Origin: Thermodesulfobacteriota bacterium
Lineage (GTDB): Bacteria; Desulfobacterota; Desulfobacteria; Desulfobacterales; SURF-7
Length of the DNA stretch: 64,000 nt
Assembly (NCBI GenBank): GCA_049320885.1
Contig: JBMORA010000063.1
Span: 96,001 to 160,000, forward strand
Direction: 5' to 3'
The notes beneath the pieces are model-generated. The model was not told the DNA's origin. It did not search any database and worked only from the letters and a program-made list of their open reading frames with translations. Position 1 is the first letter of the stretch, and each line of letters opens with the position of its first letter. The position numbers and the translations under genes were made by a program. Positions 2,927 to 41,496 of this stretch are shown piece by piece.

Positions 2927-3874
2927 TCAGGCAGGATTCGCCCGGACCACTCCGGCGGCGGCCATGATGTCCGGGACGGTCTCCTCCTTGCCGATGGCCA
3001 TGATGTGGACCCCGTCGCAGATCTTCTCCTCATGAATCCGCCGGATCATGCGGCCGGCGATTTCGATGCCCTTGGCCAAGGCGCCGCCCTTGGGCGCGGC
3101 GGCCATTTCGTCGATCAGTTCCTGGGGCACGTTGACGCCGGCGATGTTCTTGTTCATGAAGCGCGCCATGGGCGCGGAGGTGAGCAGGATGACGCCGGCC
3201 AGGATTTTCACCGGGAATTGGCGGGCGTACTCCATGAAGGCCTTGAGCCTGTCCAGATCATAGACCGCCTGGGTCTGAATGAATTCGGCGCCGGCCTCGA
3301 TTTTTTTTTCGAACTTGATCAGCTGGGGCTCCAGCGGCTCGGCCTCGGGTGTGACAATGGCCCCGGCGCAATAGGACACCTCGCCGTCCAGATCGTTGCC
3401 CCCCAGATCCTTGCCCTTTTCCAGGGTGCGGATGGCGGCCACCAGTTGGCTGGAATCCAGATCGAACACCGGTTTGGCCTGCTTGTGGTCCCCGAGCATG
3501 ACCGAGTCGCCGGTCAGACAAAGCACGTTGCGCACCCCCCGGCTCCAGGCGAACAAGAGGTCGGCCTGGAGGGCCAGACGGTTGCGGTCGCGGCAGGTCA
3601 TCTGCAGGATGGGCTCGCCGCCCTTTTCCTTCACGAGGAGGGCGCCTCCAAGGGAAGGATACCGCATCACCGAACTCTGGTGATCGGTGAGGTTCATGGC
3701 ATCCACCTTATCCTTCAGCAAATCGATGTGATGGGTCATCTTGTCCAAGTGGGCGCCCTTGGGCGGAGCCAGTTCACAGGTGACCACGAATCTGCCGGAA
3801 ACAAGCGCTTTTTTGAATTCAGAAACCATGGCTCGTCCATCCTTTTCCGAAACGGTTCGATTGACGATCGTCAT
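2927..3874 (-). CDS. metF: 5,10-methylenetetrahydrofolate reductase MetF (alternative start 3829)
   Basis: VVTCELAPPKG, MTCRDRNRLALQ, LCLTGD, KKIEAGAEFIQTQ, GVHIMA. ATGA overlap with the metV stop. Confidence 0.92.
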   Translation of the reverse strand: MTIVNRTVSEKDGRAMVSEFKKALVSGRFVVTCELAPPKGAHLDKMTHHIDLLKDKVDAMNLTDHQSSVMRYPSLGGALLVKEKGGEPILQMTCRDRNRLALQADLLFAWSRGVRNVLCLTGDSVMLGDHKQAKPVFDLDSSQLVAAIRTLEKGKDLGGNDLDGEVSYCAGAIVTPEAEPLEPQLIKFEKKIEAGAEFIQTQAVYDLDRLKAFMEYARQFPVKILAGVILLTSAPMARFMNKNIAGVNVPQELIDEMAAAPKGGALAKGIEIAGRMIRRIHEEKICDGVHIMAIGKEETVPDIMAAAGVVRANPA

Positions 3875-4527
3875 GCGTCGGCCTTATTTTCAAAATGGCC
3901 GGGTTTGGGCTCGCCCAGATAATTCCGGGGGCCGAAAAGCCGGCGCATGGAATCCAGCCGGTCCAACGCTTTCAGGCGGTTGTAGATCAGGGTCCAGGCA
4001 CAGTCCTTGTTCTTGTCGATCTCGCATTTACCCTTGTCGGTTCCACCGCAGGGACCGTTCACCAGGCCTTTGTGGCAGGAAGTGACCGGGCAGATCCCGC
4101 CGGTTTCGCCGATGATGCAGGTGCCGCACTGGGTGCAGATTTCCTGGAACCGGCCGGCGGCGGTTTCCTTGCCGATGAACAGCGTGTCCAGAGCCGGAAT
4201 GACATTCTTCCCGATCTGCCTGGCCAGGGTCTGGACGCCGAAGGCGCAGCTCATCACCAGCAGGGCCGTGGCCTGCTGAATGCCGGCGTCGCATTCCCGA
4301 AGCATTTCCAGGGTCAGGTTGTCGCAGGCCACCGGCACAACGGTCTGACCGGTGACCATTTTTCCGGCCTGGGACAGCCGTTCCTTCATGGCGGCCACCT
4401 GCTCCGTTCCGCCGGTGCGGGTGAGGGTCGCGCAGGTGCCGCAACCGATGATGAAAATGCGGTTGAAATCCGCCAGAAGCCGCGTCAGTTCCGCCTCCGG
4501 CTTGGGCTGGGTGATGGATCGAATCAT
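3871..4527 (-). CDS. metV: MTHFR accessory subunit MetV (Cys-rich Fe-S/Zn protein)
   Basis: GCGTCAT, CAFGVQ, CTQCGTC, GGICPVTSCHKGLVNGPCGG..GKCE..CAW. ATG at 4527 follows a GGAGAG RBS. Confidence 0.9.
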   Translation of the reverse strand: MIRSITQPKPEAELTRLLADFNRIFIIGCGTCATLTRTGGTEQVAAMKERLSQAGKMVTGQTVVPVACDNLTLEMLRECDAGIQQATALLVMSCAFGVQTLARQIGKNVIPALDTLFIGKETAAGRFQEICTQCGTCIIGETGGICPVTSCHKGLVNGPCGGTDKGKCEIDKNKDCAWTLIYNRLKALDRLDSMRRLFGPRNYLGEPKPGHFENKADA

Positions 4528-4531
4528 GATG

Positions 4532-7500
4532 TCATCTCCTCTCTTTCTCCAGGTCGCACCGCAGGCAGCGATAGGCTTCCCGACCGGCTTCCTCCGCGCT
4601 GACAAAGCCTTTTTCAACTTCGCGGAAGTCCCTGACGCGCTCACGCGGTTGCTCCAGTTCGACCTGTATGCGCGGTTTTTCCGCCGCTGATTCCTCCTCC
4701 AGAGCCAGACCGGCGTCGACGGGTGTGCGCGTTTTTTCGTCGATGATGGTGATGCGGCCCGTGTCACCGCTCAAAAAACGGTGAACGGCTATGGCCGCCC
4801 GTCGTCCCGAGGCGATGGCGGAGATCACGGTGCTGGGACCGGTGGTGAAATCGCCGCCGGCGAAAATACCGGGTACATTGGTGGACAAACGGTTGGCGTC
4901 TACTTCCAGGCTGCCCCAGAGGGAACGCTCGATCTGGCTGTCCTTGGAAAGAAAGGAAATGTCCGGGGCCTGACCGATGGCGATGATCACCGCGCCGGCT
5001 TCCACCTGCCGGATCTCGGTCTCGTCCAGGCTCAGGCGCGAGCGTCCGTCGGCGTCATATACGGTTTTGCTGCGCGCGAATTCCATGCCGGCCACCCGGC
5101 CGTTGTTCCGCAGGATGGATTTGGGCGCCCACATGGGATGAATGGTGATCCCTTCCTCCTCCGCCTCCTCGATGTCCTTGACCCAGGCCGGCATTTCCTG
5201 AACGCTTCGGCGGTAATAGATCTGCACGTCTTCCGCACCCATGCGCAGAGCCGTCCTGGCCGCATCCAGGGCCACATTGCCGCCGCCGATCACCAGCACC
5301 TTGCCGCCCAGGGGCACGGATTTGCCGGTGCGGACGGCCGTCAGGAACTGAAGGCCGTAATGCAGTCCCGTTACCCCCTCCCCTTCTCCGGCGATGCCCA
5401 TGCGCATGCTGGCCTGGGCCCCGGCGGCGATGAAGACCGCGCCGTACCCTTCGGCCATCAAATCATTGACCGTATGTTTGGCATCGATGGGAGCATTGTA
5501 GCGGATATCCACCCCGCAGTTTGCAATGTAGGCGATTTCCTGCTCGATGATCCGCCGCGGCAGCCGGAATTCCGGCACGGCGATCCCCAGCATGCCGCCG
5601 CCCCGGTCCTGGGATTCGAACACCGTGACCTTGTACCCCGATTTGGCCAGAAAATAGCCGCAGGTCAGTCCGGCGGGGCCTGCCCCCACCACGGCCACGG
5701 TCTGTTTTCGGGTGACGGGAAAGGGGTTCCGTTCGGGACCGATGTGCTCGAAATACCAATCCGCGGCAAAACGCTTCAGGGACCGTATGGCCACCGGATC
5801 ATCCAATTCGCCGCGCCGGCATTTGGTTTCGCAGGGATGGATGCAGATCCGTCCGCAGACGGCCGGAAACGGGTTGCGCTCCCGGATGATCTCCACCGCC
5901 TGCCGGTACTGGCCGCGGGCCACTGCCGCCACATAATTGGGGACATCGATGCCCGCCGGACAGGCATGCTGGCAGGCGGAAATGACCATGGCGTCGCAGA
6001 CGGCGCCGGAACAGCGATGTTCCCGGATATGATCCTCGTATTCCTTGGCAAAATATCGCAGGGTGGAAATGGCCGGCTTGGCGCAGGTCTGGCCGAGACC
6101 GCAGAGGGAGGTCTCCGTGACGGTGGCGCCGATTTCGCGGATGCGGTCCAGATCCGTCGGGTTTCCCTGACCGCGGGTGATGCGTGTCAGGATTTTCAGG
6201 AGCTGGGTGGTTCCCAGACGACAGGGCGCGCATTTGCCGCAGGATTCGGACTGGGTGAATTCCAGAAAAAAACGGGCGATTTCCACCATGCAGTTGTTTT
6301 CATCCATCACCACCATGCCGCCGGATCCCATGATGGCCCCGATCCGCTGGAGGGTGTCGTAGTCTATCGGAATGTTCAGATAATTGGCGGGCACACAGCC
6401 GCCCGAAGGTCCGCCCATCTGCACGGCCTTGAACTTCCGGCCCTTGGGAATCCCGCCGCCGATGTCAAAGACCACCTCGCGGATGCTGACGCCCATGGGG
6501 ACTTCCACCAGGCCGGTGTTGTTCACCTTTCCCACCAGGGAAAAGATCTTGGTGCCCTTGCTCTTTTCCGTGCCCACCTCACCGTACCAGGCGGCGCCGT
6601 GGTTGATGATCAGGGGGATATTGGCCCAGGTCTCCACGTTGTTGATATTGGTGGGTTTGCCGGCCAGACCGGCCTGGGCCGGGAAAGGCGGCCGGGCCCG
6701 GGGCATCCCCCGCTGGCCTTCGATGGAGGCCATCAGGGCGGTTTCCTCGCCGCAGACAAAGGCACCGGCCCCTTTTTTCAGGCCGAGATGGAAGCGGAAA
6801 CCGGTACCCATGATGTCCTCGCCCAAAAGCCCCAGGGATTCCATCTGCCGGATGGCGATGGTGAGGTGATCGATGGCGATGGGGTATTCCTCGCGCACAT
6901 ACACATAGCCGTATTCCGCGCCGATGGCGTAGGCCCCGATGAGCATGCCTTCCAGCACGGCATGGGGGTCGCCCTCCAGCACGGCCCGGTCCATGAAGGC
7001 TCCGGGGTCGCCTTCATCGGCGTTGCAGATGATGTATTTCGGCTTGCCCTCGGCTTCCCGGGCGAACCGCCATTTCTGGCCGGTGGGAAACCCCGCCCCT
7101 CCCCGGCCGCGCAGCCTGGCGGCGATGACCTCCTCGATGATCTCATCGGGCCGCATCCGGGTCAGGGCCTTGACCAGGGCCTGATACCCACCGGCAGCGA
7201 TATAGTCCTCGATATCGGTGGGATCGATCTGCCCGCAATTGGAAAGGACCCGGCGCACCTGCTTGCTGAAAAAGGGAATGTCCCGCTCCCGGGGGATTGG
7301 GGCCCGGGTATCCGGGTCCGTGTAGAGCAGACGCGGAACCTGTTCCCCCCGTTTCACGGTCAGGTTGACGATATCCGGCACGTCCCGGGGCTCCACCTGG
7401 TTGTAGAAAATATCCTCCGGCTCGATGTTCATCACCGGACCTTTTTCGCAGAATCCGCGGCAACCGGTTTTTTTGATCACGATCTGATCCGCAAGACCCT

Positions 7501-7663
7501 GAGCCGTGAGTTCCGCCTGCATGGCCTCGATGATCTTGAGGGAACCGCCGGCCCGGCAGCCGGTGGTGCAACAAATCTTGATGACGCGTTTTTCCTTCGC
7601 TTTCCTGTCCTTGACGGCATGGGCCAGGACGGTCAGATCTTCGGGAACTCGTATTTTTTTCAC
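4532..7663 (-). CDS. NuoF/HydB-like NADH/FMN subunit fused to a GltD/NfnB-like FAD/NADPH oxidoreductase
   Basis: N-terminal thioredoxin-like 2Fe-2S (CCTTGC..GCRGFC), LRGRGGAGFPTG, NADEGDPGAFMDR, GAFVCGEETAL, GGPSGG, ESCGKCAPCR, SLCGLG. Then CQHACP..CGRICIHPCE..CRR, GAGPAG, GGGNVALD, YYRRS, RCLRC. Confidence 0.9.
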   Translation of the reverse strand: MKKIRVPEDLTVLAHAVKDRKAKEKRVIKICCTTGCRAGGSLKIIEAMQAELTAQGLADQIVIKKTGCRGFCEKGPVMNIEPEDIFYNQVEPRDVPDIVNLTVKRGEQVPRLLYTDPDTRAPIPRERDIPFFSKQVRRVLSNCGQIDPTDIEDYIAAGGYQALVKALTRMRPDEIIEEVIAARLRGRGGAGFPTGQKWRFAREAEGKPKYIICNADEGDPGAFMDRAVLEGDPHAVLEGMLIGAYAIGAEYGYVYVREEYPIAIDHLTIAIRQMESLGLLGEDIMGTGFRFHLGLKKGAGAFVCGEETALMASIEGQRGMPRARPPFPAQAGLAGKPTNINNVETWANIPLIINHGAAWYGEVGTEKSKGTKIFSLVGKVNNTGLVEVPMGVSIREVVFDIGGGIPKGRKFKAVQMGGPSGGCVPANYLNIPIDYDTLQRIGAIMGSGGMVVMDENNCMVEIARFFLEFTQSESCGKCAPCRLGTTQLLKILTRITRGQGNPTDLDRIREIGATVTETSLCGLGQTCAKPAISTLRYFAKEYEDHIREHRCSGAVCDAMVISACQHACPAGIDVPNYVAAVARGQYRQAVEIIRERNPFPAVCGRICIHPCETKCRRGELDDPVAIRSLKRFAADWYFEHIGPERNPFPVTRKQTVAVVGAGPAGLTCGYFLAKSGYKVTVFESQDRGGGMLGIAVPEFRLPRRIIEQEIAYIANCGVDIRYNAPIDAKHTVNDLMAEGYGAVFIAAGAQASMRMGIAGEGEGVTGLHYGLQFLTAVRTGKSVPLGGKVLVIGGGNVALDAARTALRMGAEDVQIYYRRSVQEMPAWVKDIEEAEEEGITIHPMWAPKSILRNNGRVAGMEFARSKTVYDADGRSRLSLDETEIRQVEAGAVIIAIGQAPDISFLSKDSQIERSLWGSLEVDANRLSTNVPGIFAGGDFTTGPSTVISAIASGRRAAIAVHRFLSGDTGRITIIDEKTRTPVDAGLALEEESAAEKPRIQVELEQPRERVRDFREVEKGFVSAEEAGREAYRCLRCDLEKERR

Positions 7664-7705
7664 GCCGATCCTCCTTTGTGACGTCAGACCCAGCGGCTTC
7701 TCCGG

Positions 7706-8194
7706 CTATTCCCCCTGCCGGCCTTCCTTGCCGAAGTAGTTCAAGATACCGGCCACCTTGGGCGGCGAGAGCTTACCGAAATAGTCCCGGTTCACCATCA
7801 TGGTGGGCGCCAGGGCGCAGGCCCCGAGGCAGGCGGCCGATTCCAGCGTGAACTGATAATCCGGCGATGTTTCCCCTTCCTTGAGTTTCAGCTCCTGCTG
7901 CACCATCCGCAGGATGCTCCGGCCGCCCTTGACATGGCAGGCGGTTCCACAGCAGACCCGCATCACGAACTTGCCCCGGGGGGCGAGGGAGAATCCGGCG
8001 TAAAAGGTGATCACCCCCTGGACCTGGGAAGGAAAGATGCCCAGGGCTTCGGCTATCGGTTCCACGGATTCAGGCGGAATAAAACCGAAGGTTTTTTGAA
8101 TGTCCTGCAACAGGGGAATCAGCCCCCACTGCTCCTCCTTGCGGGATTCGATGAGAGCGTTCAGTTTCTGTTGATCGATTTCAGGCGGTTTCAT
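7706..8194 (-). CDS. NuoE/HydC-like 2Fe-2S subunit
   Basis: LIPLLQDIQ..FGFIP, VITFYAGF, CCGTACHVKG, ACLGACALAP. Confidence 0.92.
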   Translation of the reverse strand: MKPPEIDQQKLNALIESRKEEQWGLIPLLQDIQKTFGFIPPESVEPIAEALGIFPSQVQGVITFYAGFSLAPRGKFVMRVCCGTACHVKGGRSILRMVQQELKLKEGETSPDYQFTLESAACLGACALAPTMMVNRDYFGKLSPPKVAGILNYFGKEGRQGE

Positions 8195-10842
8195 GGCGTT
8201 CCCCCTTCCGTTTTTTCAATGCCCACCGGGCAGCAGTTCCAACCCGGGGAAGCCGAATCCATCAGTGGCGTCAGGCCCAGCAGACGGCGGGCCTGATTCG
8301 ATTCTTCCCCCTGGGGCAGCCAGACCAGACCGGACCGCAGCTGCCGGTCAATCCGGACCCGTCCATGCAACGATCCCGCTGGAGAAGTCAACCGGATGGT
8401 GTCGCCCTCCGCGACGCCCCATTGGACGGCATCCTCCTCGGAGACGGCGATGCCTTCCCGGTCCTTGAAAGCGGCGATACGCGGCGACAGTGCCGTGCGC
8501 GTCCCGCTGCCCAGATGATATCGCGGGGATCCGATGACCGCCATGAATGGATATGCGGGGTCCACCGGCTCCTGAACGGAGGTTTTCACGGCTGAAAACG
8601 GGATCGCCTGTTCACCGCCTTCCCGCCTCTGGATCCAAACCAGCTGCCCGCTGCGCGAGCTGCGGGCATACAAGGGCAGCACCTGACCGATTTCAGCCCG
8701 CACTTCTGCCAGGGAGGCGGGCGGGCGCTCGTCTCCCAGATGCCGCGCAAGGGAGATCAGGATCGCGAGATCCGGCCTGGCCTGGCCCGGCGGATCCGCC
8801 GCGGCCGACAGCTGTTGCAGACGGCCTTCCATGTTGACGAAGGCGCCCTCCTTCTCCGAAAAGGCCGCTCCGGGAAGCACGATGTGAGAATCGGCGACGG
8901 TCTCGGTGAGCAGGATATCCTGGGTGACGATAAGTTCGAGTCTGGACAAGGCCGCCTTCACGCGTTCCGGCTGGGGCAGGCTTCGCAGCGGGTTCTCGCC
9001 CATGATGAACATCCCTTTGAGACGGCCCTCCTCGGCCGCCTGAATCATGGCCACCAGATCCAGCCCCGGTTCGGCGGGCAGGTCGGTCCGCCAGACCGCC
9101 TCCCATTCCCTGCGGGCCTCCTTGTCCGCCACCGGCCGCCTGCCGGGCAGGGCATCCGGGACGCTGCCCATGTCCCAGGCGCCCACCATGTTGTTTTCCT
9201 TGGCCGGGATATAGAAACCGGCGCCTTTGTGGGCGATGCTGCCGGTCAGCATGGCCAGGTTGAGCAGCGCATCGACGGTTTCCAGGCCGGAGCGCTGCTT
9301 CAGGATGCCGTCGCCGATCACAAAGGCGATTTTTTTGTGACTCAACAGGTCCACCGCTTTTGCCAGGGATTCCTTTGCAAGTCCCGTCCGCCGGCAGATC
9401 AGCGACAGATCCAGAGCGCCCAGGCTTTCGGTGTATCGCCGGAATCCCTCGACAAACCGTTCCACAAAGGAAGCGTCATGGTTGTTCCGGGCCAGCATCA
9501 TCGCGGCGACGGCATGGACCAGATCCGCATCGGACCCGGGCTGGAGCGCCAGCCATAGAGCGCTGTATCCGGCAAGCTCGGTTTTTCGCGGATCAACGAC
9601 GATGATAGGGGTACCGTTGACGGCGCTGCGTTTGAGATAATATCCCATAACCGGCATGGAATGGGTCGGATCGGCGCCCATCACCAGGATCGCATCGCTT
9701 TTTTCCAGTCCGGCCAGGGAGCCGGCGAAAAAATGAAAGCGCCCGCCGCCGTCAGTGCGATTTTCAATGCTGCTAAGCAGTCGCCGTCCCAGTATGTAGC
9801 CGCCGTTGTCCAGGTTGTTGGTCTTCAGCAGGCTCCGGGCGATTTTTTGAAACAGATAATTTTCCTCGTTGGTGCATTTGGATGACCCCAGGAAAGCAAT
9901 GCTCCGCGGCCCATGGCGTTCCTTCAGCGCCAAAAGCCGCTGCGCCGTTTCCCGCAGGGCGTCGTCCCAGGATACGGCCTCGAGGGTTCCGTTTCTGCGG
10001 ATCAGGGGGTGCACGAGCCTTCTTTCGCTGTTCAGAAAATCATGACCGAAATGTCCTCGCACGCAAAGAGTGGTCCCATTCACGGATTTGGAATCCATGG
10101 CGGGATTGGCCTCAACGATCCTTCCATTGGAAGCACCGAGCCGCAGGCGGCAACCCACTCCGCAGAAGCCGCAGACCGTATCCACTTCCCGTTCGGGGAC
10201 GCCCACGTATCCGGAACGGATGGTCAAGGCGCCGGTGGGACAGACCGCGACGCAGGTGCCGCAGAAGGTGCAGCCGGACCGTTCCAGGGGTCTGTCCTGC
10301 AGGGTCGCCGGATAGGAACGGATGCCCCGCATGGAATAATCGATGGCACCGGTGACCACCAGTTCGTGATCGGCCCGGATGCATTTGCCGCAGAGGATGC
10401 ACTTGGAGAGATCCCGATAGATAAACGGGTTGAGCTGGTCGGGGGTCTTATCGCCGGGCATGGGGTCCAGCCGGATCGCCCCGACACCGAGATCGGCGGC
10501 CGCCCGGCGGAGACCACAACGGTTGCCTTTGTCGCAAACGATGCAGGATTCCGGATGAGCGGCCAGCATCAGGGTAACAATATTGCGGCGATGGGTGAGA
10601 ACCCGGGGGCTGTCGGTCAGAATCGCCATGTTTTGAGCCGCGGGAGTCACGCAGGACGCCAGGAGCCGGCCGCTTTTCTGTTCTTCCACCAGACATACGC
10701 GGCAGGCGCCGAAAGGTTTGAGATCCGGATGATGACAGAGCGTGGGAATGCGGAAACCGTTCTGGACGGCTGCGTCCAGCAGGCTCTCTCCCGGATTGCA
10801 ATGGATGGATTTGCCGTTGATGGTCAGGGTGATGACTTCCAC
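8191..10842 (-). CDS. FdhA/NuoG-family Fe-S molybdopterin-fold subunit lacking the catalytic Cys/Sec (SfrA-like)
   Basis: IPTLC..GACRVC..ASC, HPESCIVC..C, CILCGKCIRADHE, CTFCGTCVAVCP, CGFCGVGC..LCVRG. The active-site segment reads NNLDNGGYIL instead of NNVDHCARL(C/U)H. GTG start follows an AAGGAGG RBS. Confidence 0.85.
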   Translation of the reverse strand: MEVITLTINGKSIHCNPGESLLDAAVQNGFRIPTLCHHPDLKPFGACRVCLVEEQKSGRLLASCVTPAAQNMAILTDSPRVLTHRRNIVTLMLAAHPESCIVCDKGNRCGLRRAAADLGVGAIRLDPMPGDKTPDQLNPFIYRDLSKCILCGKCIRADHELVVTGAIDYSMRGIRSYPATLQDRPLERSGCTFCGTCVAVCPTGALTIRSGYVGVPEREVDTVCGFCGVGCRLRLGASNGRIVEANPAMDSKSVNGTTLCVRGHFGHDFLNSERRLVHPLIRRNGTLEAVSWDDALRETAQRLLALKERHGPRSIAFLGSSKCTNEENYLFQKIARSLLKTNNLDNGGYILGRRLLSSIENRTDGGGRFHFFAGSLAGLEKSDAILVMGADPTHSMPVMGYYLKRSAVNGTPIIVVDPRKTELAGYSALWLALQPGSDADLVHAVAAMMLARNNHDASFVERFVEGFRRYTESLGALDLSLICRRTGLAKESLAKAVDLLSHKKIAFVIGDGILKQRSGLETVDALLNLAMLTGSIAHKGAGFYIPAKENNMVGAWDMGSVPDALPGRRPVADKEARREWEAVWRTDLPAEPGLDLVAMIQAAEEGRLKGMFIMGENPLRSLPQPERVKAALSRLELIVTQDILLTETVADSHIVLPGAAFSEKEGAFVNMEGRLQQLSAAADPPGQARPDLAILISLARHLGDERPPASLAEVRAEIGQVLPLYARSSRSGQLVWIQRREGGEQAIPFSAVKTSVQEPVDPAYPFMAVIGSPRYHLGSGTRTALSPRIAAFKDREGIAVSEEDAVQWGVAEGDTIRLTSPAGSLHGRVRIDRQLRSGLVWLPQGEESNQARRLLGLTPLMDSASPGWNCCPVGIEKTEGGTP

Positions 10843-10856
10843 AAGACCGCCTCCTT

Positions 10857-10958
10857 AGAAGTCCCTGTTCTGTCACTCCGTCCCGGATCGGAGTCCAGAA
10901 GCAATTATAAATACTGGATGACGGAGACCGAGAGTCTCGACTTTTACGAGTTCATCAA
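10857..10958. repeat. REP/MITE-like intergenic element with nested hairpins
   Basis: Stems ACTCCG/CGGAGT, TCCAG/CTGGA and GAGAC/GTCTC. Ends in GACTTTTACGAGTTCATCAA, which resembles, from recall, the terminus of a dispersed repeat in Desulfobacterales genomes. Confidence 0.5.
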
Positions 10959-10961
10959 GAT

Positions 10962-11837
10962 CTATTTCAGCTTGGCGGCGTCCAGATACAATTTCAGCTT
11001 GTCTTCGCCGCCGATGGTGATGATGTGAATGCCCTGGCAAAGATCCTTCAATCCGTTGACGAGGTCGGCGAACAGTTCGATACTGGCCTTCCTCTTGTCA
11101 TGGGCTCCGGCGAGCTTCTTGATGACCCAATCGGGAACCAGTCCGGACTTGAGATGACGATTCAGGAACTGGCCCACCCCGGCTGTTTGGAGAATCATCA
11201 CCTCCGCGATCACCGGAATCCCGAAGGTCTGGGTCTGCTTCAGGAATTTTTCAAAACGCTCCAGGTCGAACACCGGCGTGGTGAGAAAATAACCGGCGCC
11301 CATGCGGGTCATCTCCTCCATTTCCTTGAGCTCGAGTTCCGGCACGTTTTTGCCCCAGGCGGATTCCACACCCGACCCGAGCACGAACTCCGCGGGTTTT
11401 GGAAGGGGTTGGCCGTCCACGGTCTGACCGGTCTTCAAATGCTCCAGAACCGAGGCCAGTTTTCCGGCATCCACATGGAAAAACATCATTTCCTGGAGAC
11501 TGTCGCCGGTAATGCGGTAATCCTCGGTGAATACCAGCAGGTTTTCGACCCCGGACTGATGGGCGCTCAGCAGGTCTTTCTGCAATTGCAGGCGGTTTTT
11601 CTGGCGGGTGGTGGTCTGGTAGATGGCTTCGAAACGGTTCTGCTGGAGGATATCGCAGGTCTTGATGGTATCCCCCACCACGCCTTCCAGTTCAATCTCG
11701 GAGATGGATACGCCGTCCACCCGGCCCCGGATGAGCTTCAGGTTGTCGATCAGATCGTCCGGGCCCTCACCCAAGGGCGACTGCACCTCGGAAGTGACGA
11801 CGAATTTGCCGTTCTTGAGCGCTTCTTTCAATTTCAT
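10962..11837 (-). CDS. Divergent MetF-like (MTHFR family) protein
   Basis: KFVVTSEVQSP, TTRQKNRLQLQ, LVFTED, GAGYFLTTPVFD, GIHIITIG; same length and layout as MetF. Start MKLKEALK follows GGAGG. Confidence 0.8.
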   Translation of the reverse strand: MKLKEALKNGKFVVTSEVQSPLGEGPDDLIDNLKLIRGRVDGVSISEIELEGVVGDTIKTCDILQQNRFEAIYQTTTRQKNRLQLQKDLLSAHQSGVENLLVFTEDYRITGDSLQEMMFFHVDAGKLASVLEHLKTGQTVDGQPLPKPAEFVLGSGVESAWGKNVPELELKEMEEMTRMGAGYFLTTPVFDLERFEKFLKQTQTFGIPVIAEVMILQTAGVGQFLNRHLKSGLVPDWVIKKLAGAHDKRKASIELFADLVNGLKDLCQGIHIITIGGEDKLKLYLDAAKLK

Positions 11838-11903
11838 ATCGACCTCCCCGGCGGTTTTCGACACCGCGGCGGACATGGCTGCCGAATGAGAAAGGCCGTA
11901 AGA

Positions 11904-12476
11904 TCACTTCAGTCCCAACAGGCGCGCAACTTCTTCCTTCAACTGGGGCAGGGGCAGGGGTTTGGAAAAGCAGACATCGGCGCCATTGTCCTTCATTTGT
12001 TTGAACTTCTCCTCATCCAGATAGGCGGACAGCACAATGATTTTCGTTTCTCCGGTCTCCGGATTGGATTTGATTTTCCGGCAGACCTCATAGCCTTTGA
12101 TATCCGGCATCATGATATCGAGAATCAGCACATGGGGTTTGAAATGATTGACCTGCAGCCCGGCCTCGAAACCGTCCGAGGCCGAAATCACTTCGTAATC
12201 GTATTCGTCCTCCTCCAATGCCTGGACAAGGGTCTCAACGATGATGGGATCGTCGTCCACCACCAGAATCCGCTTGCGCTGATCCTGCGGCTCTTTCTCG
12301 GGAACGGGAATCCCCTGTTTGGCCATGAAGCTCTTCAGAATCGACAGTTTTATGCGGCGATGGCCGCCCACGGTTTTATACGCCTCGATATGGCCCGAAT
12401 CGATCCAGTTGATAATGGTTTGCGGTGACACATTGCAGTATTTGCTGGCTTTGGCAACGGTCAGGATGTCTTCCAT
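11904..12476 (-). CDS. Response regulator with an N-terminal excisionase-like (HTH_17/MerR-like) DNA-binding domain and a C-terminal REC domain
   Basis: LTVAKASKYCNVSPQTIINWIDSGHIEAYKTVGGHRRI, then ILVVDDD..ILDIMMP..VLSAY..FSKP. Confidence 0.9.
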   Translation of the reverse strand: MEDILTVAKASKYCNVSPQTIINWIDSGHIEAYKTVGGHRRIKLSILKSFMAKQGIPVPEKEPQDQRKRILVVDDDPIIVETLVQALEEDEYDYEVISASDGFEAGLQVNHFKPHVLILDIMMPDIKGYEVCRKIKSNPETGETKIIVLSAYLDEEKFKQMKDNGADVCFSKPLPLPQLKEEVARLLGLK

Positions 12477-12532
12477 GAGGATACCCCCCTTTTCTGGTGG
12501 TGGCGGGGAAAATTGTTTCTGATTTATAATTA

Positions 12533-12592
12533 TTTTAGTTTTTTTAGTTTGTCAACACTTATTTTGTTTTAGTTTTTTTAGTTTTTATAGAT
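12533..12592 (-). promoter_or_regulatory. AT-rich promoter with 9-bp-period direct repeats flanking a TTGACA -35
   Basis: The identical 18-mer TTTTAGTTTTTTTAGTTT occurs at 12533-12550 and 12567-12584. AG cores fall at 12537, 12546, 12571, 12580 and 12589. Minus-strand TTGACA at 12555-12550; the -10 is ambiguous. Confidence 0.65.
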
Positions 12593-12655
12593 TTTTTATA
12601 TATTAAATAAACTACTGGTACCCTCCGGATAATAGAGGCAGCGGGATTCCGCGAA

Positions 12656-14500
12656 TCAAGCGGTGGGTTCGTTTTCAGCAGGCGGATGGGAGGGGAGCAG
12701 GATGGTGAAGGTGGTGCCGGAGTCCACGGCGCTTTGCACCTGGATATCACCGCCGTGATCCTTGATAAAACCGTAACACACCGAAAGCCCGAGACCGACC
12801 CCCTTGACGCTTTCCTTGGTGGTGAAAAAGGCGTCGAAAATTTTGGGCAGGTTTTCCTCGCGGATACCCATCCCCGTGTCGGTTATCCGGACCCGGATCT
12901 CCTTGTCGTTGCGGCCGGTTTCCACCGTCAGAACGCCGCCGCCGGGCATGGCGTCACGGGCGTTGGCGATCATGTTGAGAAATACCTGGCGCAGCTGGTT
13001 TTTGGAAGCAAACACCACGCAAGGCTCCGGGCAGTAATGGGGCTCGATGGCGATGTTGTTTTCGCGGAATTGCTTTTCATGCAGGAGCAGGATTTCATCC
13101 AGGATGGTGTTGATATCCGTGGGCTGCCGGATCTCCTGATCCGGTTTGGAAAATGTCAGCATCTTCCGGAGCAGTTCGCTCAAACGGACGGTTTCGGACA
13201 GGGCCATGTCCAGAATTTTGCGGCGACGGTTTCCCGGCTGAATTTCGGTTTTCATCAGCTCCAGGGTGTTCATGATGCCGTACAGGGGGTTGTTCAACTC
13301 ATGGGCCACCTGGGATGTCAGACGGCCCATGGCGGACAGCTTCTCCGCCTGAAGCAGTTGTTCCTGGGTCTGACGCAGACGGCGTTCCATATCCAGGCGC
13401 TCCTTCAGATCCACAAAAATCCCCACGGTGGCCAACTCCTTGCCAGCATCGTCGTATAGAATCGCCGCCGAGAGATTGCCTTCCACGATTTTGCCGTCCC
13501 GTCGCATGTAGACGATGGGATAGGAGCGGAGGCGTCCGGCCCTGTCGTGGTCCGGCCGGCGCAGCATCTGCATGACCTTGCGGGCCATGCCCTGGGGATA
13601 GATTTCCGTTATATTCATCCTGCCGATGACCTCCTCGGTCTTATAGCCCAGGATTTCCTCCGCGGCCCGATTCCAGATCAGCATCCGGCCGCGCATGTCC
13701 GCGGCCATGACGGCATTCGGCGAACTGTGGATGATCTTGTTCAGGAAGTCGTTCACTTCCCGGATTTCCTTCTCCATCCGTTTGCGCTGGGTCTGGTCGA
13801 CGATGATGCCTTCGTAACCGATCACATTGCCCTGTTCATCGCAACGCACATGGCCCGTGAGCAGGACGGGAATGGGACTGCCGTCCCGGCGCTTGAATTC
13901 GATTTCGTATTCAACCACCTGCCCGGCCGTTTCAATTTCCTGCTGGAAGCGTTTCCGGTCTTCCGGCCGCAGGTAGAGATCCTGCAGAATATTGATGTTC
14001 AGAAATTCTTCCTTGCTGTCATAACCGAACATGTGGAGAAGCGCCTGATTGGCGTCCAGGAATTTCCCTTCCTTGCTGCTGATGTAGACGCCGCACCCCA
14101 CGTGCTCGAAAAGACGCCGGTAATCCCGTTCCGTGGCCTTCAGCTTTTCGGTTCTCTGTTTTTCCTGGGTGATATCGCGATAAACGCTCAGTTTGAGGAT
14201 ATCGCCGTCTGCTTTTTTCAGCGGCAGGTTCATGACATCGTAGCTCTTGTTCAGCCACGGCATATGCAATTCGCGGTGAAACGCTTCGCCGCCGAAAACC
14301 CCTTCCGATTTGCATTCGGCGCAAATCTGTTCGCTCCGGGCAATGAACCGGTGGCATTTTTCACCGATACCCTGGCCGAAATCCCGGATCATGGCGGCAT
14401 TCATGTATTGAATGGTGTAATGGCGGTCGGTGATATAGACGCCGTCCTTCATGGCGTCAAAGACCGAAATCATGTTTTGCAGTTCTTTCCGTATCGGCAT
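12656..14500 (-). CDS. Cytoplasmic multi-PAS sensor histidine kinase
   Basis: Three PAS domains, H-box QVAHELNNPL, NMIANARDA, FDAFFTTK..GVGLGL. Start uncertain (14500 or 14473). Confidence 0.88.
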   Translation of the reverse strand: MPIRKELQNMISVFDAMKDGVYITDRHYTIQYMNAAMIRDFGQGIGEKCHRFIARSEQICAECKSEGVFGGEAFHRELHMPWLNKSYDVMNLPLKKADGDILKLSVYRDITQEKQRTEKLKATERDYRRLFEHVGCGVYISSKEGKFLDANQALLHMFGYDSKEEFLNINILQDLYLRPEDRKRFQQEIETAGQVVEYEIEFKRRDGSPIPVLLTGHVRCDEQGNVIGYEGIIVDQTQRKRMEKEIREVNDFLNKIIHSSPNAVMAADMRGRMLIWNRAAEEILGYKTEEVIGRMNITEIYPQGMARKVMQMLRRPDHDRAGRLRSYPIVYMRRDGKIVEGNLSAAILYDDAGKELATVGIFVDLKERLDMERRLRQTQEQLLQAEKLSAMGRLTSQVAHELNNPLYGIMNTLELMKTEIQPGNRRRKILDMALSETVRLSELLRKMLTFSKPDQEIRQPTDINTILDEILLLHEKQFRENNIAIEPHYCPEPCVVFASKNQLRQVFLNMIANARDAMPGGGVLTVETGRNDKEIRVRITDTGMGIREENLPKIFDAFFTTKESVKGVGLGLSVCYGFIKDHGGDIQVQSAVDSGTTFTILLPSHPPAENEPTA

Positions 14501-14523
14501 CGATTTGCGGAATTCGCCGGGCC

Positions 14524-16500
14524 TCAAGACCCGGCGGTGGCCCCTTTTTCCAGGGCCACCATGCCCATCTGATAACAACGCAGGCAGCGGGAGGCCTCCT
14601 CCAACGCCTGGGGCAATGTATAACCGGTTTCAATTTCAGCCAAACTGCCGACCCTCTCTTCCAACGGAATCGTCGGCATGGGCACCCGCTCCTCGGACGG
14701 CAATATCGGTCGCGGGGCCTCGCCTTCGACCCCCAGCATCCTCATCAGCTTGTCCATTTTTTCAGCAGCGGAAAGGCTGACGGGTTGATGGTTCAGGTAT
14801 TGATCGATGCTTTCGGCCGCTCGTTTACCGTGAGCGCAGGCGTCCACGATGGTCAAGGGACCGCTGTAAACATCTCCGGCGGTGAAAATCCAGGGCACAT
14901 GGGTCTGATACGTGTCCGGATCCGCCACGATGGTTTTCCAGCGGGTCAGCTGGACCCCTTCCACCCCGTTCAACACTGTCAGATCACTCTCTTGTCCGAT
15001 GGCCTGAATGATGATATCCGCCGGGACCACGAATTCGGAACCTTTCACCTCCCGGGGGCTTCTCCTGCCGCTGGCATCCGGTTCGCCCAGCTCCATCCGG
15101 ATGCATTCCATCCCGACGACCTTGCCATCTTCCGCGATGATTTGTTTGGGCGCGGCCAGGAACAAATATTTGACGCCCTCGATTTCCGAATCGTGAACCT
15201 CATGGGGATCAGCTGGCAACTCCTTTTTGGTCCGGCGATACACCACGGTTACCTCCGCGGCGCCCTTTCGGATGGGGGTTCGGCAGCAGTCCATGGCCAC
15301 ATTGCCGCCGCCCACGACGACAATCCGCTTGTCTTTCAAATCATAACATTGGGAGATCACGCAATCGCGAAGATAATCCACGCCGGTGATGAACCCCTCG
15401 TAGCCTTCATCCTCCCCCTTGGCCCCCATTTTTTTGGATATATGGGCGCCGATGGAAATCAGAACCGCCTGGTACCCCTGGTCCCGAAGCATGGGGATGG
15501 TCAGCTCCTTTCCGATGGGAGTGTCATAGCGGATCTCAACGCCCATGCCGCGAACAAAATCCACTTCCCGCTGCAGCACTTCCTTGGGAACCCGGTATTG
15601 AGGGATACCCACGCCCACCATGCCGCCGGAAACCGGCAGCGACTCGAAAACCGTCACCCGATAACCCATGAGCGCCAGATAGTAGGCCGCGGACAGTCCG
15701 GCCGGTCCGGCGCCGATAACCGCCACTTTTTCTTCCCGGAGGGATTTGGCCGGATTCCCGGGTTTCGCCACCGGGTGGGTATCCTCGAAATCCCAGGCGA
15801 AGCGTTTCAGCTTGCAGATGGAAACCGGTTTGCCGGAGTACCCCCGCCGGCAATTGGTTTCGCATGGATGGAAACAGGCCCGGCCCAGGGAGGCCGCCAT
15901 TGGGCTGGCCTCCCGAATAATTTTCAGTGATCCCAAATGGTTACCTTCATGAATACACTCAACGAAACCAGGGATGTCCATCCCCGCCGGACAGGCGGAA
16001 TAACAGGGCGCGGTCCATCTGGCGGCATACCGCGTGTCGGTGCGAAGCGGTTTCCTGGAATGAATCAGGTCCATGAATTCGTTCTTGAAATACCGCAGGG
16101 CGTGCTGAATCGGAATGGGAACGGTTTTCCCGATATAGCATTTCGACCCCATGGATATGTAATCGGCCAGTTCGGCAAGCCGGTTCAAATCCTGTTCGTC
16201 GCCCTGCCCCGCCACGATTTTCCTCAGGATCGTCGCCATGGCTTCCGTGCCCATCCGGCAGGGGAAACATTTGCCGCACGAGGCTTTCCCGGCCTCCTCG
16301 ACGTAGTGAAGACACATATCCGCCATTCGTACGGAATCCGCAAGCAGAATGATTCCCGCCCATCCCATGAATGCGCCGATCCGGTTTTCCGGATCAAATT
16401 CCTTTGGCAGCTTGATGGCGGGGGCATTCAGGCGTTTGCCCGGTTCCATCCCCCGATTGTCAATGACCTCGTTGTTCCAAGAAGAAAATAGTACTTCCAT
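14524..16500 (-). CDS. SfrB-like FAD/Fe-S NADPH oxidoreductase (NuoF-type 4Fe-4S domain plus GltD-like domain)
   Basis: N-terminus VLFSSW..IDNR..FMGWAGIIL recalls Geobacter SfrB. Also SCGKCFPCRMG, APCYSACP, GAGPAG, GGGNVAMD, VYRRT, RCLRC. AGGAGA RBS. Confidence 0.85.
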   Translation of the reverse strand: MEVLFSSWNNEVIDNRGMEPGKRLNAPAIKLPKEFDPENRIGAFMGWAGIILLADSVRMADMCLHYVEEAGKASCGKCFPCRMGTEAMATILRKIVAGQGDEQDLNRLAELADYISMGSKCYIGKTVPIPIQHALRYFKNEFMDLIHSRKPLRTDTRYAARWTAPCYSACPAGMDIPGFVECIHEGNHLGSLKIIREASPMAASLGRACFHPCETNCRRGYSGKPVSICKLKRFAWDFEDTHPVAKPGNPAKSLREEKVAVIGAGPAGLSAAYYLALMGYRVTVFESLPVSGGMVGVGIPQYRVPKEVLQREVDFVRGMGVEIRYDTPIGKELTIPMLRDQGYQAVLISIGAHISKKMGAKGEDEGYEGFITGVDYLRDCVISQCYDLKDKRIVVVGGGNVAMDCCRTPIRKGAAEVTVVYRRTKKELPADPHEVHDSEIEGVKYLFLAAPKQIIAEDGKVVGMECIRMELGEPDASGRRSPREVKGSEFVVPADIIIQAIGQESDLTVLNGVEGVQLTRWKTIVADPDTYQTHVPWIFTAGDVYSGPLTIVDACAHGKRAAESIDQYLNHQPVSLSAAEKMDKLMRMLGVEGEAPRPILPSEERVPMPTIPLEERVGSLAEIETGYTLPQALEEASRCLRCYQMGMVALEKGATAGS

Positions 16501-16558
16501 TGTTTCTCCTGACCCATCGCTTTCTTTTTTGCATCCGATAATCCGCTTTACCGGGCGA

Positions 16559-16789
16559 TCAGGTTTCGCACGGCGGCGTCGGAGCGATTTGTTGCAGTTC
16601 CCGGGACTGGACCTTGCGAATCCAGTATTTCCCCGCAATCAACGTCCCGATTGCCATGGGTAAATATGCACATAAAAAAACGGTTGTCAATGTTTCTTGA
16701 TCCCGGCTGGCCCAAAAGAGACAGGCCGTCAGCTCGATCAGCACCAGCACATCCAGGAAAACCACAACCAGACGTTGTCGGACAGACAT
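16559..16789 (-). CDS. Small membrane protein (76 aa, 2 TM)
   Basis: AAGGAGG RBS before the ATG; two hydrophobic segments. Confidence 0.7.
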   Translation of the reverse strand: MSVRQRLVVVFLDVLVLIELTACLFWASRDQETLTTVFLCAYLPMAIGTLIAGKYWIRKVQSRELQQIAPTPPCET

Positions 16790-39336: not shown

Positions 39337-39441
39337 TTGCATATTGCAATATGGTCCTTTTTATGATTGTGTTATCTGACTAATATTAATGAATATCATA
39401 CCTGTTGTAACAGTCGGGACCGGCTGTTGCGATTTGTAACA
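39337..39441. promoter_or_regulatory. Candidate enhancer (bEBP) binding palindromes
   Basis: TTGCA-TAT-TGCAA at 39337-39349 and TGTTGC-GATTT-GTAACA near 39425-39441, about 80-180 bp upstream of the sigma-54 promoter. Confidence 0.5.
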
Positions 39442-39459
39442 TCCAGGAAGGATCGAACC

Positions 39460-41496
39460 ATGTCGCTGTTTAAAAAGCCATCAAAAACAGGCGAGACGGC
39501 GCAGCAGGGCGCCGGGGATTTATTGGAGCTGCGCACCCGGGCCAAAAAAGCCGAACTGCCGGAACCGGTATCCACCGTGGTGGGGGCCCAGCTGGATCGC
39601 CTGGAAAGCATGGACAGCTCCAGTCCGGAGTACGGCATCGGCATGGATTATGTCGCTTTTGTGCTGGCCCTGCCCTGGAACCATTTCACCGAGGACAATC
39701 TGGATCTGAAACGAGCGGAAACCATACTGGAAAAGCAGCACTTCGGGTTGCGGCACGTGAAGGAACGGATTCTGGATTTTCTGGCGGTGCGGGCCCTGTC
39801 TTCTCTTCAGGCGTTTCGAATTCTGGTGGTGGATGACGAGCCCATCGCCCGCGCCAACCTGGAGCATATTCTGCTGAAGGAGGGATACCTCGTATCCACC
39901 GCCTCCAACGGCCTGGAAGCACTGGGTCTCATGGAGCGACAGGAATTCGAGCTGGTTCTCACGGATCTGAAAATGGAAAAAATGGACGGCCTCCAGCTGC
40001 TGGCAGCCGCACGGAAAACCGCGCCGCATACCGAATTCATCATGATCACGGGGTATGCCACGGTCAACAGCGCCGTGGACGCTCTCCGGAAAGGGGCCAG
40101 TAACTATCTGGCCAAACCCGTGGATCTGAACGAATTGCGCGCCATGGTCCGCCAACTGCACAACCGAAAAAAGCATCTGCGTCTGACGCGCAGCCCCATC
40201 CTGCTGTTTTCAGGTCCTCCGGGAACCGGCAAGACCTCCCTGGGACGGGCCATCGCCGAGGCCCTGCAGCGGAAATTCGTGTGCATTTCCCTGGCCGGAC
40301 TCCGGGACGAGGCGGAACTGCACGGCCACCGCCGCACCTATGTCGGCGCCATGCCCGGCAGGCTGATCAACGAGATCAAACGTCTGGGGGTTAAGAATCC
40401 GGTTTTCATGCTGGACGAGATCGATAAGATCGGCCAGGATTTTCGCGGCGATCCGGCGGCGGTGCTGCTGGAAATCCTGGATCCGGAACAGAACAGCCGC
40501 TTCACCGACCATTATGTGGATTTGCCCTTTGACTTGTCCGGGGTCATGTTCATCGCCACCGCCAACATGGTGGACAAGCTGCCCGGCCCCCTGCGGGACC
40601 GCATGGAGAATATCCCCTTTTCCGGGTATACGGAAAAAGAAAAACAGGAAATCGCCGCGCATTATCTCATTCCGCGCCAGTTACGGGAACACTCCCTGAT
40701 ATCCCGCAACGTGGGGTTCAGTCCGGAATCGATTCTGCGGGTGATTCGCAATTATACCCTCGAGGCCGGCCTGAGAAACCTGGAACGGGAAATCGCCGCC
40801 ATCTGCCGGAAGCTCGCCCGCCTCTGCCTGCAGAATCAGGATGAAACCTCCAGCAAACCGCTGCTGGTCGATGAAAGCCTGACGGAACAACTCCTGGGGC
40901 CCCCCAAATACACCCACCAGGCAGCCGCCGCCGGACACCGGATCGGTGTGGCCACCGGACTGGTCTGGACCGAATTCGGCGGGGAAATCATCTTCGTGGA
41001 AGCGGCTTGCATGCGCGGCAGCAAGCAATTGATCCTCACCGGCTCTCTAGGCGATGTCCTGCGCGAATCCGCCCAGACCGCCATGAGCTATATCCGCAGC
41101 AACGCCCCGGGTCTGGGGATTGACCCGGATTTTTTCGACAACAGCGATATCCACATCCACATTCCCGCGGGTGCGGTATCCAAGGACGGTCCGTCCGCGG
41201 GAGTCACCATCCTGGTGGCGTTGATTTCCCTGATCACCCGGAAACCCGCCCGCCGGGACGTGGCCCTCACCGGCGAAATCACCCTCAGCGGCCGAATCCT
41301 TTCGGTCAGCGGTATCCGGGAAAAACTGCTGGCGGCCCAGCGGGCCGGAATCCGGACCGTTATCCTGCCCAAAGGGAATGAACTGGACATCGGCAACCTG
41401 GACCCCGACCTGATCAGCGGAATGAAAATCATTACGGCTGGAGAAGTCAATTCCCTGCCGGAACTTGTGCTGCTGGATACCGAAACCGCCGACTGA
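39460..41496 (+). CDS. lon: Lon-family ATP-dependent protease lacking the N-terminal domain, with a receiver domain inserted in the AAA+ module
   Basis: LPW..DLKRAETILEKQHFGLRHVKERILDFLAV, then REC, then PILLFSGPPGTGKTS, GHRRTYVGAMPG, MLDEIDK, KDGPSAG (Ser) and GIREK (Lys). Confidence 0.9.
   Translation: MSLFKKPSKTGETAQQGAGDLLELRTRAKKAELPEPVSTVVGAQLDRLESMDSSSPEYGIGMDYVAFVLALPWNHFTEDNLDLKRAETILEKQHFGLRHVKERILDFLAVRALSSLQAFRILVVDDEPIARANLEHILLKEGYLVSTASNGLEALGLMERQEFELVLTDLKMEKMDGLQLLAAARKTAPHTEFIMITGYATVNSAVDALRKGASNYLAKPVDLNELRAMVRQLHNRKKHLRLTRSPILLFSGPPGTGKTSLGRAIAEALQRKFVCISLAGLRDEAELHGHRRTYVGAMPGRLINEIKRLGVKNPVFMLDEIDKIGQDFRGDPAAVLLEILDPEQNSRFTDHYVDLPFDLSGVMFIATANMVDKLPGPLRDRMENIPFSGYTEKEKQEIAAHYLIPRQLREHSLISRNVGFSPESILRVIRNYTLEAGLRNLEREIAAICRKLARLCLQNQDETSSKPLLVDESLTEQLLGPPKYTHQAAAAGHRIGVATGLVWTEFGGEIIFVEAACMRGSKQLILTGSLGDVLRESAQTAMSYIRSNAPGLGIDPDFFDNSDIHIHIPAGAVSKDGPSAGVTILVALISLITRKPARRDVALTGEITLSGRILSVSGIREKLLAAQRAGIRTVILPKGNELDIGNLDPDLISGMKIITAGEVNSLPELVLLDTETAD

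Follow-up and report, generated by a model that had tools for sequence, protein, structure and literature searches.

The window analysed here is a stretch of 64,000 nucleotides from a Thermodesulfobacteriota bacterium of the order Desulfobacterales (assembly GCA_049320885.1, contig JBMORA010000063.1, positions 96,001 to 160,000 of the forward strand). Eight co-directional genes on its minus strand, across 2927-14578, join metV and metF, the genes of a MetVF-type methylene-tetrahydrofolate reductase (MTHFR; tetrahydrofolate is abbreviated THF), to genes for an FdhA/NuoG-like subunit, a NuoE-like subunit and a NuoF::GltD fusion. We considered these three proteins as a candidate electron module of MetVF. 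The genes and the Pfam domains of their products are as follows.

2927..3874, minus strand: metF, catalytic MTHFR subunit of the MetV-dependent kind (MTHFR, 134 bits)
3871..4527, minus strand: metV, Fe-S subunit of MetVF (PF12225, 119 bits)
4532..7663, minus strand: nuoF::gltD fusion, 1043 aa (Trx-like 2Fe-2S, Complex1_51K, SLBB, NADH_4Fe-4S, Fer4_20, Pyr_redox_2)
7706..8194, minus strand: nuoE-like [2Fe-2S] subunit (PF01257, 160 bits)
8191..10842, minus strand: FdhA/NuoG-like subunit, 883 aa (Fer2_4, NADH-G_4Fe-4S_3, Fer4, Molybdop_Fe4S4, Molybdopterin, Molydop_binding)
10962..11837, minus strand: metF2, divergent MTHFR-family gene at the head of the operon (MTHFR, 68 bits)
11904..12476, minus strand: response regulator (HTH_17/MerR-type HTH and a receiver domain)
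12656..14578, minus strand: PAS histidine kinase, probable partner of the regulator (two to three PAS domains, HisKA, HATPase_c); the coordinates are those of the longest open reading frame, and the true start probably lies further in

The genes are as tightly packed as the preliminary description of this locus had claimed, and all the junctions were verified in the sequence. The TGA of nuoF-gltD is followed after 4 nt by the ATG of metV, metV and metF overlap in an ATGA, and the FdhA-like gene and nuoE overlap in the same way. The nuoF-gltD gene itself starts with GTG and is preceded by a 42-nt spacer carrying a strong ribosome-binding site (AAGGAGG), while a gap of 119 nt separates metF2 from the FdhA-like gene. 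The likely start of metF2 is the ATG at 11837, which has a GGGGAGG site in front and coincides with the Met at which its Atlas record begins. Judged by these junctions, metV appears to be translationally coupled to nuoF-gltD, and the spacing of the genes is what suggests that the whole set is co-transcribed. No NCBIfam model scored above its cut-off for any of the seven proteins scanned, and a Pfam search detected no HdrA, HdrB, HdrC or MvhD at this Nuo-type locus.

The preliminary description presented this operon as a candidate new type of MTHFR, but the arrangement had already been named. Yi et al. (2021) found NuoEFG homologues upstream of metFV in Dethiosulfatarculus sandiegensis and described an unstudied "X type" (group III) MTHFR, widespread in Desulfobacterales and Chloroflexi, for which they speculated on bifurcation (PMC8515935). 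As in the X type, homologues of NuoE, NuoF and NuoG lie directly upstream of metV-metF here, and the taxa given in that paper agree with those of the loci presented below (Desulfobacterales, Desulfatiglandales and Dehalococcoidales). We assign the operon to the X type by its gene arrangement. Group III MetFV sequences are described as a branch of their own, separate from the 2-, 3- and 6-subunit types; the MetV comparison made here covered 201 genomes of the order, in which a gap in identity may mark such a branch. The idea is thus not new, but the finding is real and important.

To follow the arrangement in other genomes, NuoF::GltD was used as a query and yielded 41 species-level loci at 59-74% NuoF::GltD identity, mostly from metagenome-assembled genomes (MAGs) of Desulfobacterales, Desulfatiglandales and Desulfobulbaceae, plus one from Dehalococcoidales. 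Counts were restricted to loci whose contig reaches far enough to be assessable. MetV follows NuoF::GltD in 38 of 38 such loci, the two matches lying 5-16 nt apart in 35, and MetF (27/27), NuoE (36/36) and the FdhA-like gene (28/28) are equally constant. MetF2, which the earlier description of the operon had left out, precedes the FdhA-like gene in 22 of 26 loci and is thus regularly the head of the operon. In 19 of 23 X-type loci, the regulator (76-85% identical) comes immediately before metF2, and a histidine kinase lies upstream of the regulator in most loci. MetF orthologues share 76-86% identity at most loci, falling to 69-70% at the two most distant; MetF has equivalents of Glu28, Asp120 and Gln183 of the E. 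coli enzyme, and the Cys-rich motifs of MetV are invariant in 22 sequences. Kept across 41 species-level loci at such divergence, the arrangement lies far beyond chance.

An evenly drawn sample of 201 genomes of the order gave the same picture from the side of MetV. MetV of any type was found in 184 of the 201 genomes, and identity to the window's MetV is bimodal, being at least 68% in 29 genomes and at most 46% in the remainder. Among the 29, a full NuoF::GltD (at least 66% identity) stands directly upstream of this MetV in 28, the two matches being at most 16 nt apart; the 29th has the fusion gene in the same place, but truncated by the end of the contig. In a 30th genome, MetF2, the FdhA-like gene and NuoE were found where a contig ends. 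This MetV lineage is specific to the Nuo-type module, and 27 of the 29 X-type genomes have at least two MetV matches. The linkage, for which the preliminary description had proposed a gene-neighbourhood survey, therefore held in both samples (38/38 loci and 29/29 genomes). Related clusters with 59-70% identical NuoF::GltD were also seen in three MAGs labelled Acidobacteriota or Pseudomonadota (L012, L042 and L048); these labels could reflect mis-binning, old labels or gene transfer.

The largest subunit of the module resembles a formate dehydrogenase (FDH), and the preliminary description had stated that it has neither an H-cluster nor a Mo-ligating Cys or selenocysteine (Sec). Both points were borne out by Pfam, by alignment to the solved YjgC chain and by the alignment of the clade. 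In the window's protein, the position aligned to the Mo-ligating Cys of YjgC is a Leu within a degenerate loop. We compared this loop in an alignment of 49 sequences, 30 from MetVF-linked clade members and 19 from other relatives. It is degenerate or partly deleted in 30 of 30 clade members, while the motif CA[R/H]x[C/U]H is kept in 14 more distant relatives adjoining NuoE and NuoF (the latter fused to GltD in some), with a Cys as Mo ligand in six of them and an in-frame TGA in eight. The His after the Mo ligand and the Arg of the RGQNN motif, which like the ligand we take to be catalytic in FDHs, are also lost, the commonest clade residues being Gly and Ala, respectively. An active formate dehydrogenase is ruled out by the loss of these three residues, and a hydrogenase by the lack of any H-cluster domain in the Pfam search of the FdhA-like protein, in which no Pyr_redox_2 domain was detected either. 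The score of the protein against TIGR01591 (448 bits) is below the cut-off of that model (666).

The Fe-S part of the same subunit has had a different fate. Of the columns that are invariant in the 14 real FDH relatives, the Fe-S part retains 36 of 39 and the molybdopterin part 53 of 137, and the latter diverges at about double the rate of any other operon part (mean distance 0.92 versus 0.20-0.44). The cluster ligands are all invariant in 22 sequences, among them those of the [4Fe-4S] cluster of the molybdopterin domain and those of the His-ligated NuoG-type cluster (H96/C100/C103/C109). In 30/30 clade members, Asp158 stands in place of the fourth Cys in the first ferredoxin motif, a residue that remains Cys in 19/19 of the others; a cluster ligated by Asp, or one of the 3Fe type, would usually differ in potential, often toward higher values. 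Taken together, these patterns indicate that the FdhA-like subunit is most simply read as a dead formate dehydrogenase retained as an Fe-S wire.

Close counterparts of the module are FdsABG-like NAD(P)-linked FDHs (loci L050, L056 and L075), which share with it NuoE, NuoF (fused to GltD in some) and the conserved Fe-S part of FdhA. They differ in gene order, which is E-F-A in place of A-E-F-V-F, and their FdhA differs from that of the present clade, which lacks the Mo ligand, the His and the Arg and has an Asp for one cluster Cys. As a separate observation, MetV and/or MetF occur within a few kb of NuoE, NuoF and FdhA genes in five loci of other phyla (L054, L056, L063, L079 and L087) from Planctomycetota, Dehalococcoidales, a Gracilibacter MAG and an unclassified MAG. 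FdhA retains its Cys or Sec ligand in the first four, L087 being outside this count, and these loci may represent an independent link of MetVF to NuoEF-type formate dehydrogenases.

We then analyzed the fusion protein. Residues 1-563 of NuoF::GltD have as best solved match the NiFe-HydB chain 7t2r_B (771 bits), followed by HydB, NfnB and StnB at 631-689 bits, whereas the non-bifurcating FdsB and NuoF match the same residues at 367-413 bits. For residues 563-1037, the match is to the GltD part of StnC (8oh5_C). All the Fe-S cysteines and the FMN/NADH motifs of the fusion are invariant in 22 sequences. Together with its partners, the fusion provides the feature set of the Bfu type, that is a NuoE-like [2Fe-2S] cluster, a NuoF-like FMN/NADH site with a [4Fe-4S] and a Trx-like [2Fe-2S] cluster, and the NuoG-like His-ligated cluster. 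The homology of the NuoF part to HydB stops at about residue 560-573 of 630, and Fer4_20, with its eight invariant Cys, begins at residue 550. A C-terminal 2x[4Fe-4S] ferredoxin-like domain on the B subunit is presumably a feature of Bfu enzymes, and judged by sequence the Fer4_20 region of GltD may or may not substitute for it.

This architecture bears on whether the complex would bifurcate at all, since the module could also belong to a real complex that works as a plain NAD(P)H:methylene-THF oxidoreductase, like MetVF-RnfC2 of Acetobacterium woodii, without ferredoxin and with two sites for accepting either nucleotide. RnfC2 is itself a NuoF-related FMN/NADH protein with an N-terminal MetV-like domain, and the A. 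woodii enzyme uses NADH (PMC8515935). The 2x[4Fe-4S] of GltD lie where the C-terminal 2x[4Fe-4S] of HydB/StnB is expected, with no Bfu-type C-terminal domain evident, which also fits a plain reductase. The switching of the GltD nucleotide motif between YRR and CLE, described below, speaks for the same reading, as though the choice of cofactor simply followed what is available. The three-subunit A. woodii enzyme resembles the present one in having a NuoF-related FMN/NADH partner, but the N-terminus of NuoF::GltD is a Trx-like [2Fe-2S] domain in which Pfam found no PF12225 match, and the A. woodii enzyme has no NuoE, NuoG-like or GltD parts. A plain reductase would have no need of NuoE, of a long Fe-S wire or of two flavins, and the NuoF part scores far higher with bifurcating Bfu B subunits (631-771 bits) than with FdsB and NuoF. 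Moreover, oxidation of methyl-THF by NAD(P)+ alone is endergonic (PMC6295475), making such an enzyme a poor fit to an oxidative Wood-Ljungdahl pathway. On balance, we regard a plain reductase as unlikely.

The nucleotide motif of the GltD domain proved to be variable. An Arg-Arg pair at the end of the second Rossmann motif suggests NADPH and an acidic residue suggests NADH. The second Rossmann motif of the window's GltD reads GGGNVALD...YYRRS. At the 2'-phosphate site after GGGNVAxD, (Y/F)YRR is present in the window's protein and 12 relatives and (F/V)CLE in 26 of 39 clade members, while YRR is found in 12 of 12 outgroup sequences. We mapped the motifs by eye onto a quick IQ-TREE phylogeny of 45 near full-length NuoF::GltD fusions. 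On this quick tree, the MetVF-linked fusions form one group (SH-aLRT 99) whose nearest outgroup row is a fusion from an FDH-type locus (L056); YRR is basal (L045 and L047), CLE occupies the middle, and YRR appears again in a well-supported clade of ten rows that includes the window. By the Rossmann rule, the members bearing CLE are predicted to be of the NADH type. The preliminary description had proposed coupling to NADPH, which would agree with the YRR motif of the window's genome but does not extend to the clade, where NADH is predicted for 26 of 39 members. In one locus (L009), both the X-type GltD and the GltD::HdrA of a neighbouring Hdr-type metVF cluster carry CLE, which looks as if the cofactor preference had shifted across the organism. 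The C-terminal CxxC tail of NuoF::GltD was considered as a MetV-docking tail and rejected, as it is also present in FDH-type fusions and in a lone GltD gene at 14524-16638.

The flip between YRR and CLE also bears on a further alternative, in which the three module genes encode a stand-alone Stn/NfnABC-like transhydrogenase, coupling NADH and ferredoxin with NADPH, that only shares an operon with MetVF. The domain inventory of the module equals that of StnABC of Sporomusa ovata (PDB 8oh5; PMC10482914, PMC7483475): a NuoE-like subunit, a NuoF-like FMN/NADH part, a GltD part with FAD/NADPH site and 2x[4Fe-4S], and a NuoG-like subunit with an inactive FdhF-like domain. StnC indeed consists of a 2Fe-2S domain, a GltD insert at residues 102-565, NuoG-type clusters and a catalytically inactive FdhF domain (PMC10482914), and the NADPH-type YRR of the window's GltD would suit such an enzyme. 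However, GltD is inserted in StnC, the NuoG-like subunit, and is fused here to the C-terminus of NuoF; the present module is always followed by metVF, no clade member lacking MetV where the contig allowed it to be seen; and most relatives have no NADPH-type motif. A transhydrogenase would lose its purpose with the CLE that 26 of 39 clade members have at the 2'-phosphate site, and it would hardly give up the distinction between the two nucleotides, so that a pure NADH/NADPH transhydrogenase is hard to reconcile with the flip. In addition, Hdr/MvhD genes fill the same slot in other genomes, as described next. We therefore consider a stand-alone transhydrogenase highly improbable.

MetF2, the head of the operon, has equivalents of Glu28 and Asp120 and a Thr at the position of Gln183; in E. 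coli MetF, Glu28 is catalytic while Asp120 and Gln183 bind the pterin (PMC11094777). Among solved structures, it matches only a fragment of one MTHFR-like entry. In the sample of the order, MetF2 is a single-copy gene in 41 of 201 genomes (identity at least 66%), namely 22 of the 29 X-type genomes and 19 others, and seven of the 29 X-type genomes have no match. We examined 18 of the 19 genomes in which MetF2 occurs without an X-type match. One is the truncated X-type locus mentioned above (genome G007), one ends right after MetF2, and 16 are Hdr-type. In the latter, the same head of histidine kinase, response regulator (74-84% identical) and MetF2 is followed by an HdrC-like gene and GltD::HdrA, usually with MvhD. 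MetV-MetF come next in nine of the 16, and the contig ends too early in four. The remaining three (L097, L098 and L107, from genomes G016, G029 and G195) show no MetVF within at least 6 kb; MvhD was seen in L097 and L098. The tree of MetF2 requires at least two changes of cassette type, of which the starred branches force only one. The cassette swap is thus rare but real, and the GltD domain is common to both cassette types.

In Moorella, the Hdr/MvhD module is a biochemically established partner of MetFV (PMC8515935). The six-subunit MetFV-HdrABC-MvhD of Moorella thermoacetica and the present operon both combine MetVF with a module of the flavin-based bifurcation type in one operon, and in the Hdr version of Desulfobacterales the module likewise stands between MetF2 and MetVF and includes a GltD domain; the difference is that the putative hub here is the FMN of NuoF and not the FAD of HdrA. 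The presence of a Nuo-type module in the slot of Hdr/MvhD is, by this analogy, the strongest argument that the two would serve the same purpose.

The cassette swap also invites an explanation in which the module mainly serves MetF2, MetVF being a separate ferredoxin-dependent enzyme that is merely co-regulated. The regulator and MetF2 are the constant head of both cassette types, MetF2 is 65-81% conserved with its catalytic Glu and pterin-binding Asp, and MetF2 and Hdr-type genes go without MetVF in L097, L098 and L107, so that such modules need not serve MetVF. In these three loci, MetF2 may be a catalytic partner of the Hdr-type modules in its own right. At the X-type loci, however, it is MetF2 that is dispensable, being absent from four of 26 loci and without a match in seven of 29 genomes, while MetV is present in 38 of 38. 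The metV gene is translationally coupled to nuoF-gltD as judged above, the MetV lineage co-varies strictly with the type of module, and MetF2 lacks the equivalent of the pterin-binding Gln183. A module devoted mainly to MetF2 thus seems improbable.

The preliminary description had proposed that the Nuo-like core is the electron input/output module of MetVF. The functional link behind that proposal is now strongly supported by the linkage, the specific MetV lineage and the slot shared with Hdr, and the linkage, the lineage and the cassette swap together make it most likely that the module is the electron module of MetVF. We think it probable that the products form one cytoplasmic X-type methylene-THF reductase/methyl-THF dehydrogenase, in which MetVF is wired to a Bfu-type module and which probably has three redox partners. 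In such an enzyme, MetF would perform the folate chemistry and MetV would carry the electrons of MetF to or from the module made of the FdhA-like subunit, NuoE and NuoF::GltD. The module would exchange electrons with NADH at the FMN of NuoF and, in the window's genome, with NADPH at the FAD of GltD. The FdhA-like subunit, a former formate dehydrogenase, would now act as Fe-S wire and scaffold, and the MetVF pair would replace its lost Mo site as the third redox site, so that the complex would most likely couple three redox partners. MetF2 and the dedicated pair of PAS kinase and regulator would be part of the same unit.

The direction of the reaction can be proposed from the potentials. Oxidation of methyl-THF (-200 mV) by NAD(P)+ (-320 mV) is uphill (PMC6295475). 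In a complete-oxidising sulfate reducer, reduced ferredoxin or another low-potential donor would drive it, and in the reductive direction the same enzyme would bifurcate. Given this energetic barrier and the bifurcating type of the NuoF part, our best guess is that ferredoxin takes part in a three-partner reaction. As to where MetV would dock, two sites are suggested. The logic of a replaced active site points to the FdhA-like subunit, as does a weak signal in a distance-correlation test over 16 taxa, in which MetV correlates better with the FdhA-like subunit (r 0.71-0.72) than with GltD (0.50). The gene order, by contrast, points to GltD. A complex prediction of residues 130-883 of the FdhA-like subunit with MetV, based on 22-row alignments, gave a score of 0.00, which is no answer and counts as evidence neither way, and MetV has no solved relative (best E 0.17).

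Several observations weigh against a MetVF complex of this kind. The module holds every domain of the stand-alone StnABC and could work without MetVF, and three Hdr-type loci have MetF2 and the other cassette with no MetVF nearby. The gap between nuoF-gltD and metV widens to 55, 190 and 263 nt in three of the 38 loci. In the distance-correlation test, the known pair MetV-MetF failed as a positive control (partial r -0.04), and we therefore give the signal noted above little weight. A search for longer MetV fusions returned three MetV-MetF fusions and none with a module domain, and scans for consensus promoters and terminators remained at chance level (four versus 2.9 expected, and 11 versus 11.1). 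Finally, the literature searched contained no biochemical, proteomic or RNA evidence for any member. Beyond the paragraph of Yi et al. 2021, that search, which covered journals outside subscription, found no study of the enzyme.

If MetF2 belongs to the enzyme itself, a larger assembly can be imagined. It would have six subunits, two of the folate catalytic type, with MetF2 at one end and MetV-MetF at the other of a Bfu-type wire whose Asp-ligated cluster is tuned upward in potential. Such an enzyme would confurcate electrons of methyl-THF and of a low-potential donor (reduced ferredoxin, or NADPH in the YRR types) onto NAD+, with the Nuo/Hdr core as an exchangeable cassette. We put this forward tentatively, as a doubtful but possible elaboration; if true, it would solve the uphill oxidation of methyl-THF in the reverse Wood-Ljungdahl pathway.

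Which electron partner serves MetVF-type reductases has long been a missing piece in the bioenergetics of the Wood-Ljungdahl pathway, whether it runs reductively or oxidatively. In acetogens, this partner decides the ATP yield, while complete-oxidising sulfate reducers and syntrophic acetate oxidisers face the uphill oxidation of methyl-THF with NAD(P)+. The operon, with its defined set of subunits, is a concrete and widespread candidate: 29 of the 201 genomes sampled from the order have it, and a contig end truncates a 30th cluster. The Nuo- and Hdr-type cassettes behind the same MetF2 head, together with the YRR and CLE variants, make the question directly testable. To the earlier picture of the X type, the present analysis adds the Asp ligand, the change between YRR and CLE, MetF2 together with its kinase and regulator, and the exchange of cassettes. 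The section of Yi et al. that treats the X type (PMC8515935) makes no mention of the GltD fusion, the blank Mo site, the replacement of Cys by Asp or MetF2, nor of the two-component system, the YRR/CLE flip or the Hdr cassette swap.

The window's genome fits the setting assumed above, as both acetyl-CoA synthase and DsrA are present, in agreement with the Wood-Ljungdahl sulfate reducer that the preliminary description had supposed. It contains four metV loci and eight MTHFR-family genes. Two of the four metV loci are Hdr-type, with GltD::HdrA fusions of 1401 and 1496 aa and MvhD, the hdr/mvhD genes adjoining metVF. Given these other metV loci, the X type would be an extra, separately regulated reductase and not the sole one of this organism. 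The MTHFR and metV sites of this genome (G000) lie on contigs C48, C16, C28, C9 and C25 and at 85568-86377 of C63, and one canonical MetF was found, at 269 bits.

Two further genes of the window were noted. Upstream of the kinase, at 14524-16638 on the minus strand, the lone GltD-type gene mentioned above encodes a protein of 704 aa with NADH_4Fe-4S, Fer4_20 and Pyr_redox_2 domains. It resembles NuoF::GltD from the C-terminal [4Fe-4S] domain of the NuoF part onward, about two thirds of the fusion, with the FMN domain missing, and is not conserved at the corresponding position of related loci. Far from the operon, at 39367-41496 on the plus strand, lies a gene for a Lon-type protease in which a response-regulator receiver domain precedes the AAA and Lon_C domains.

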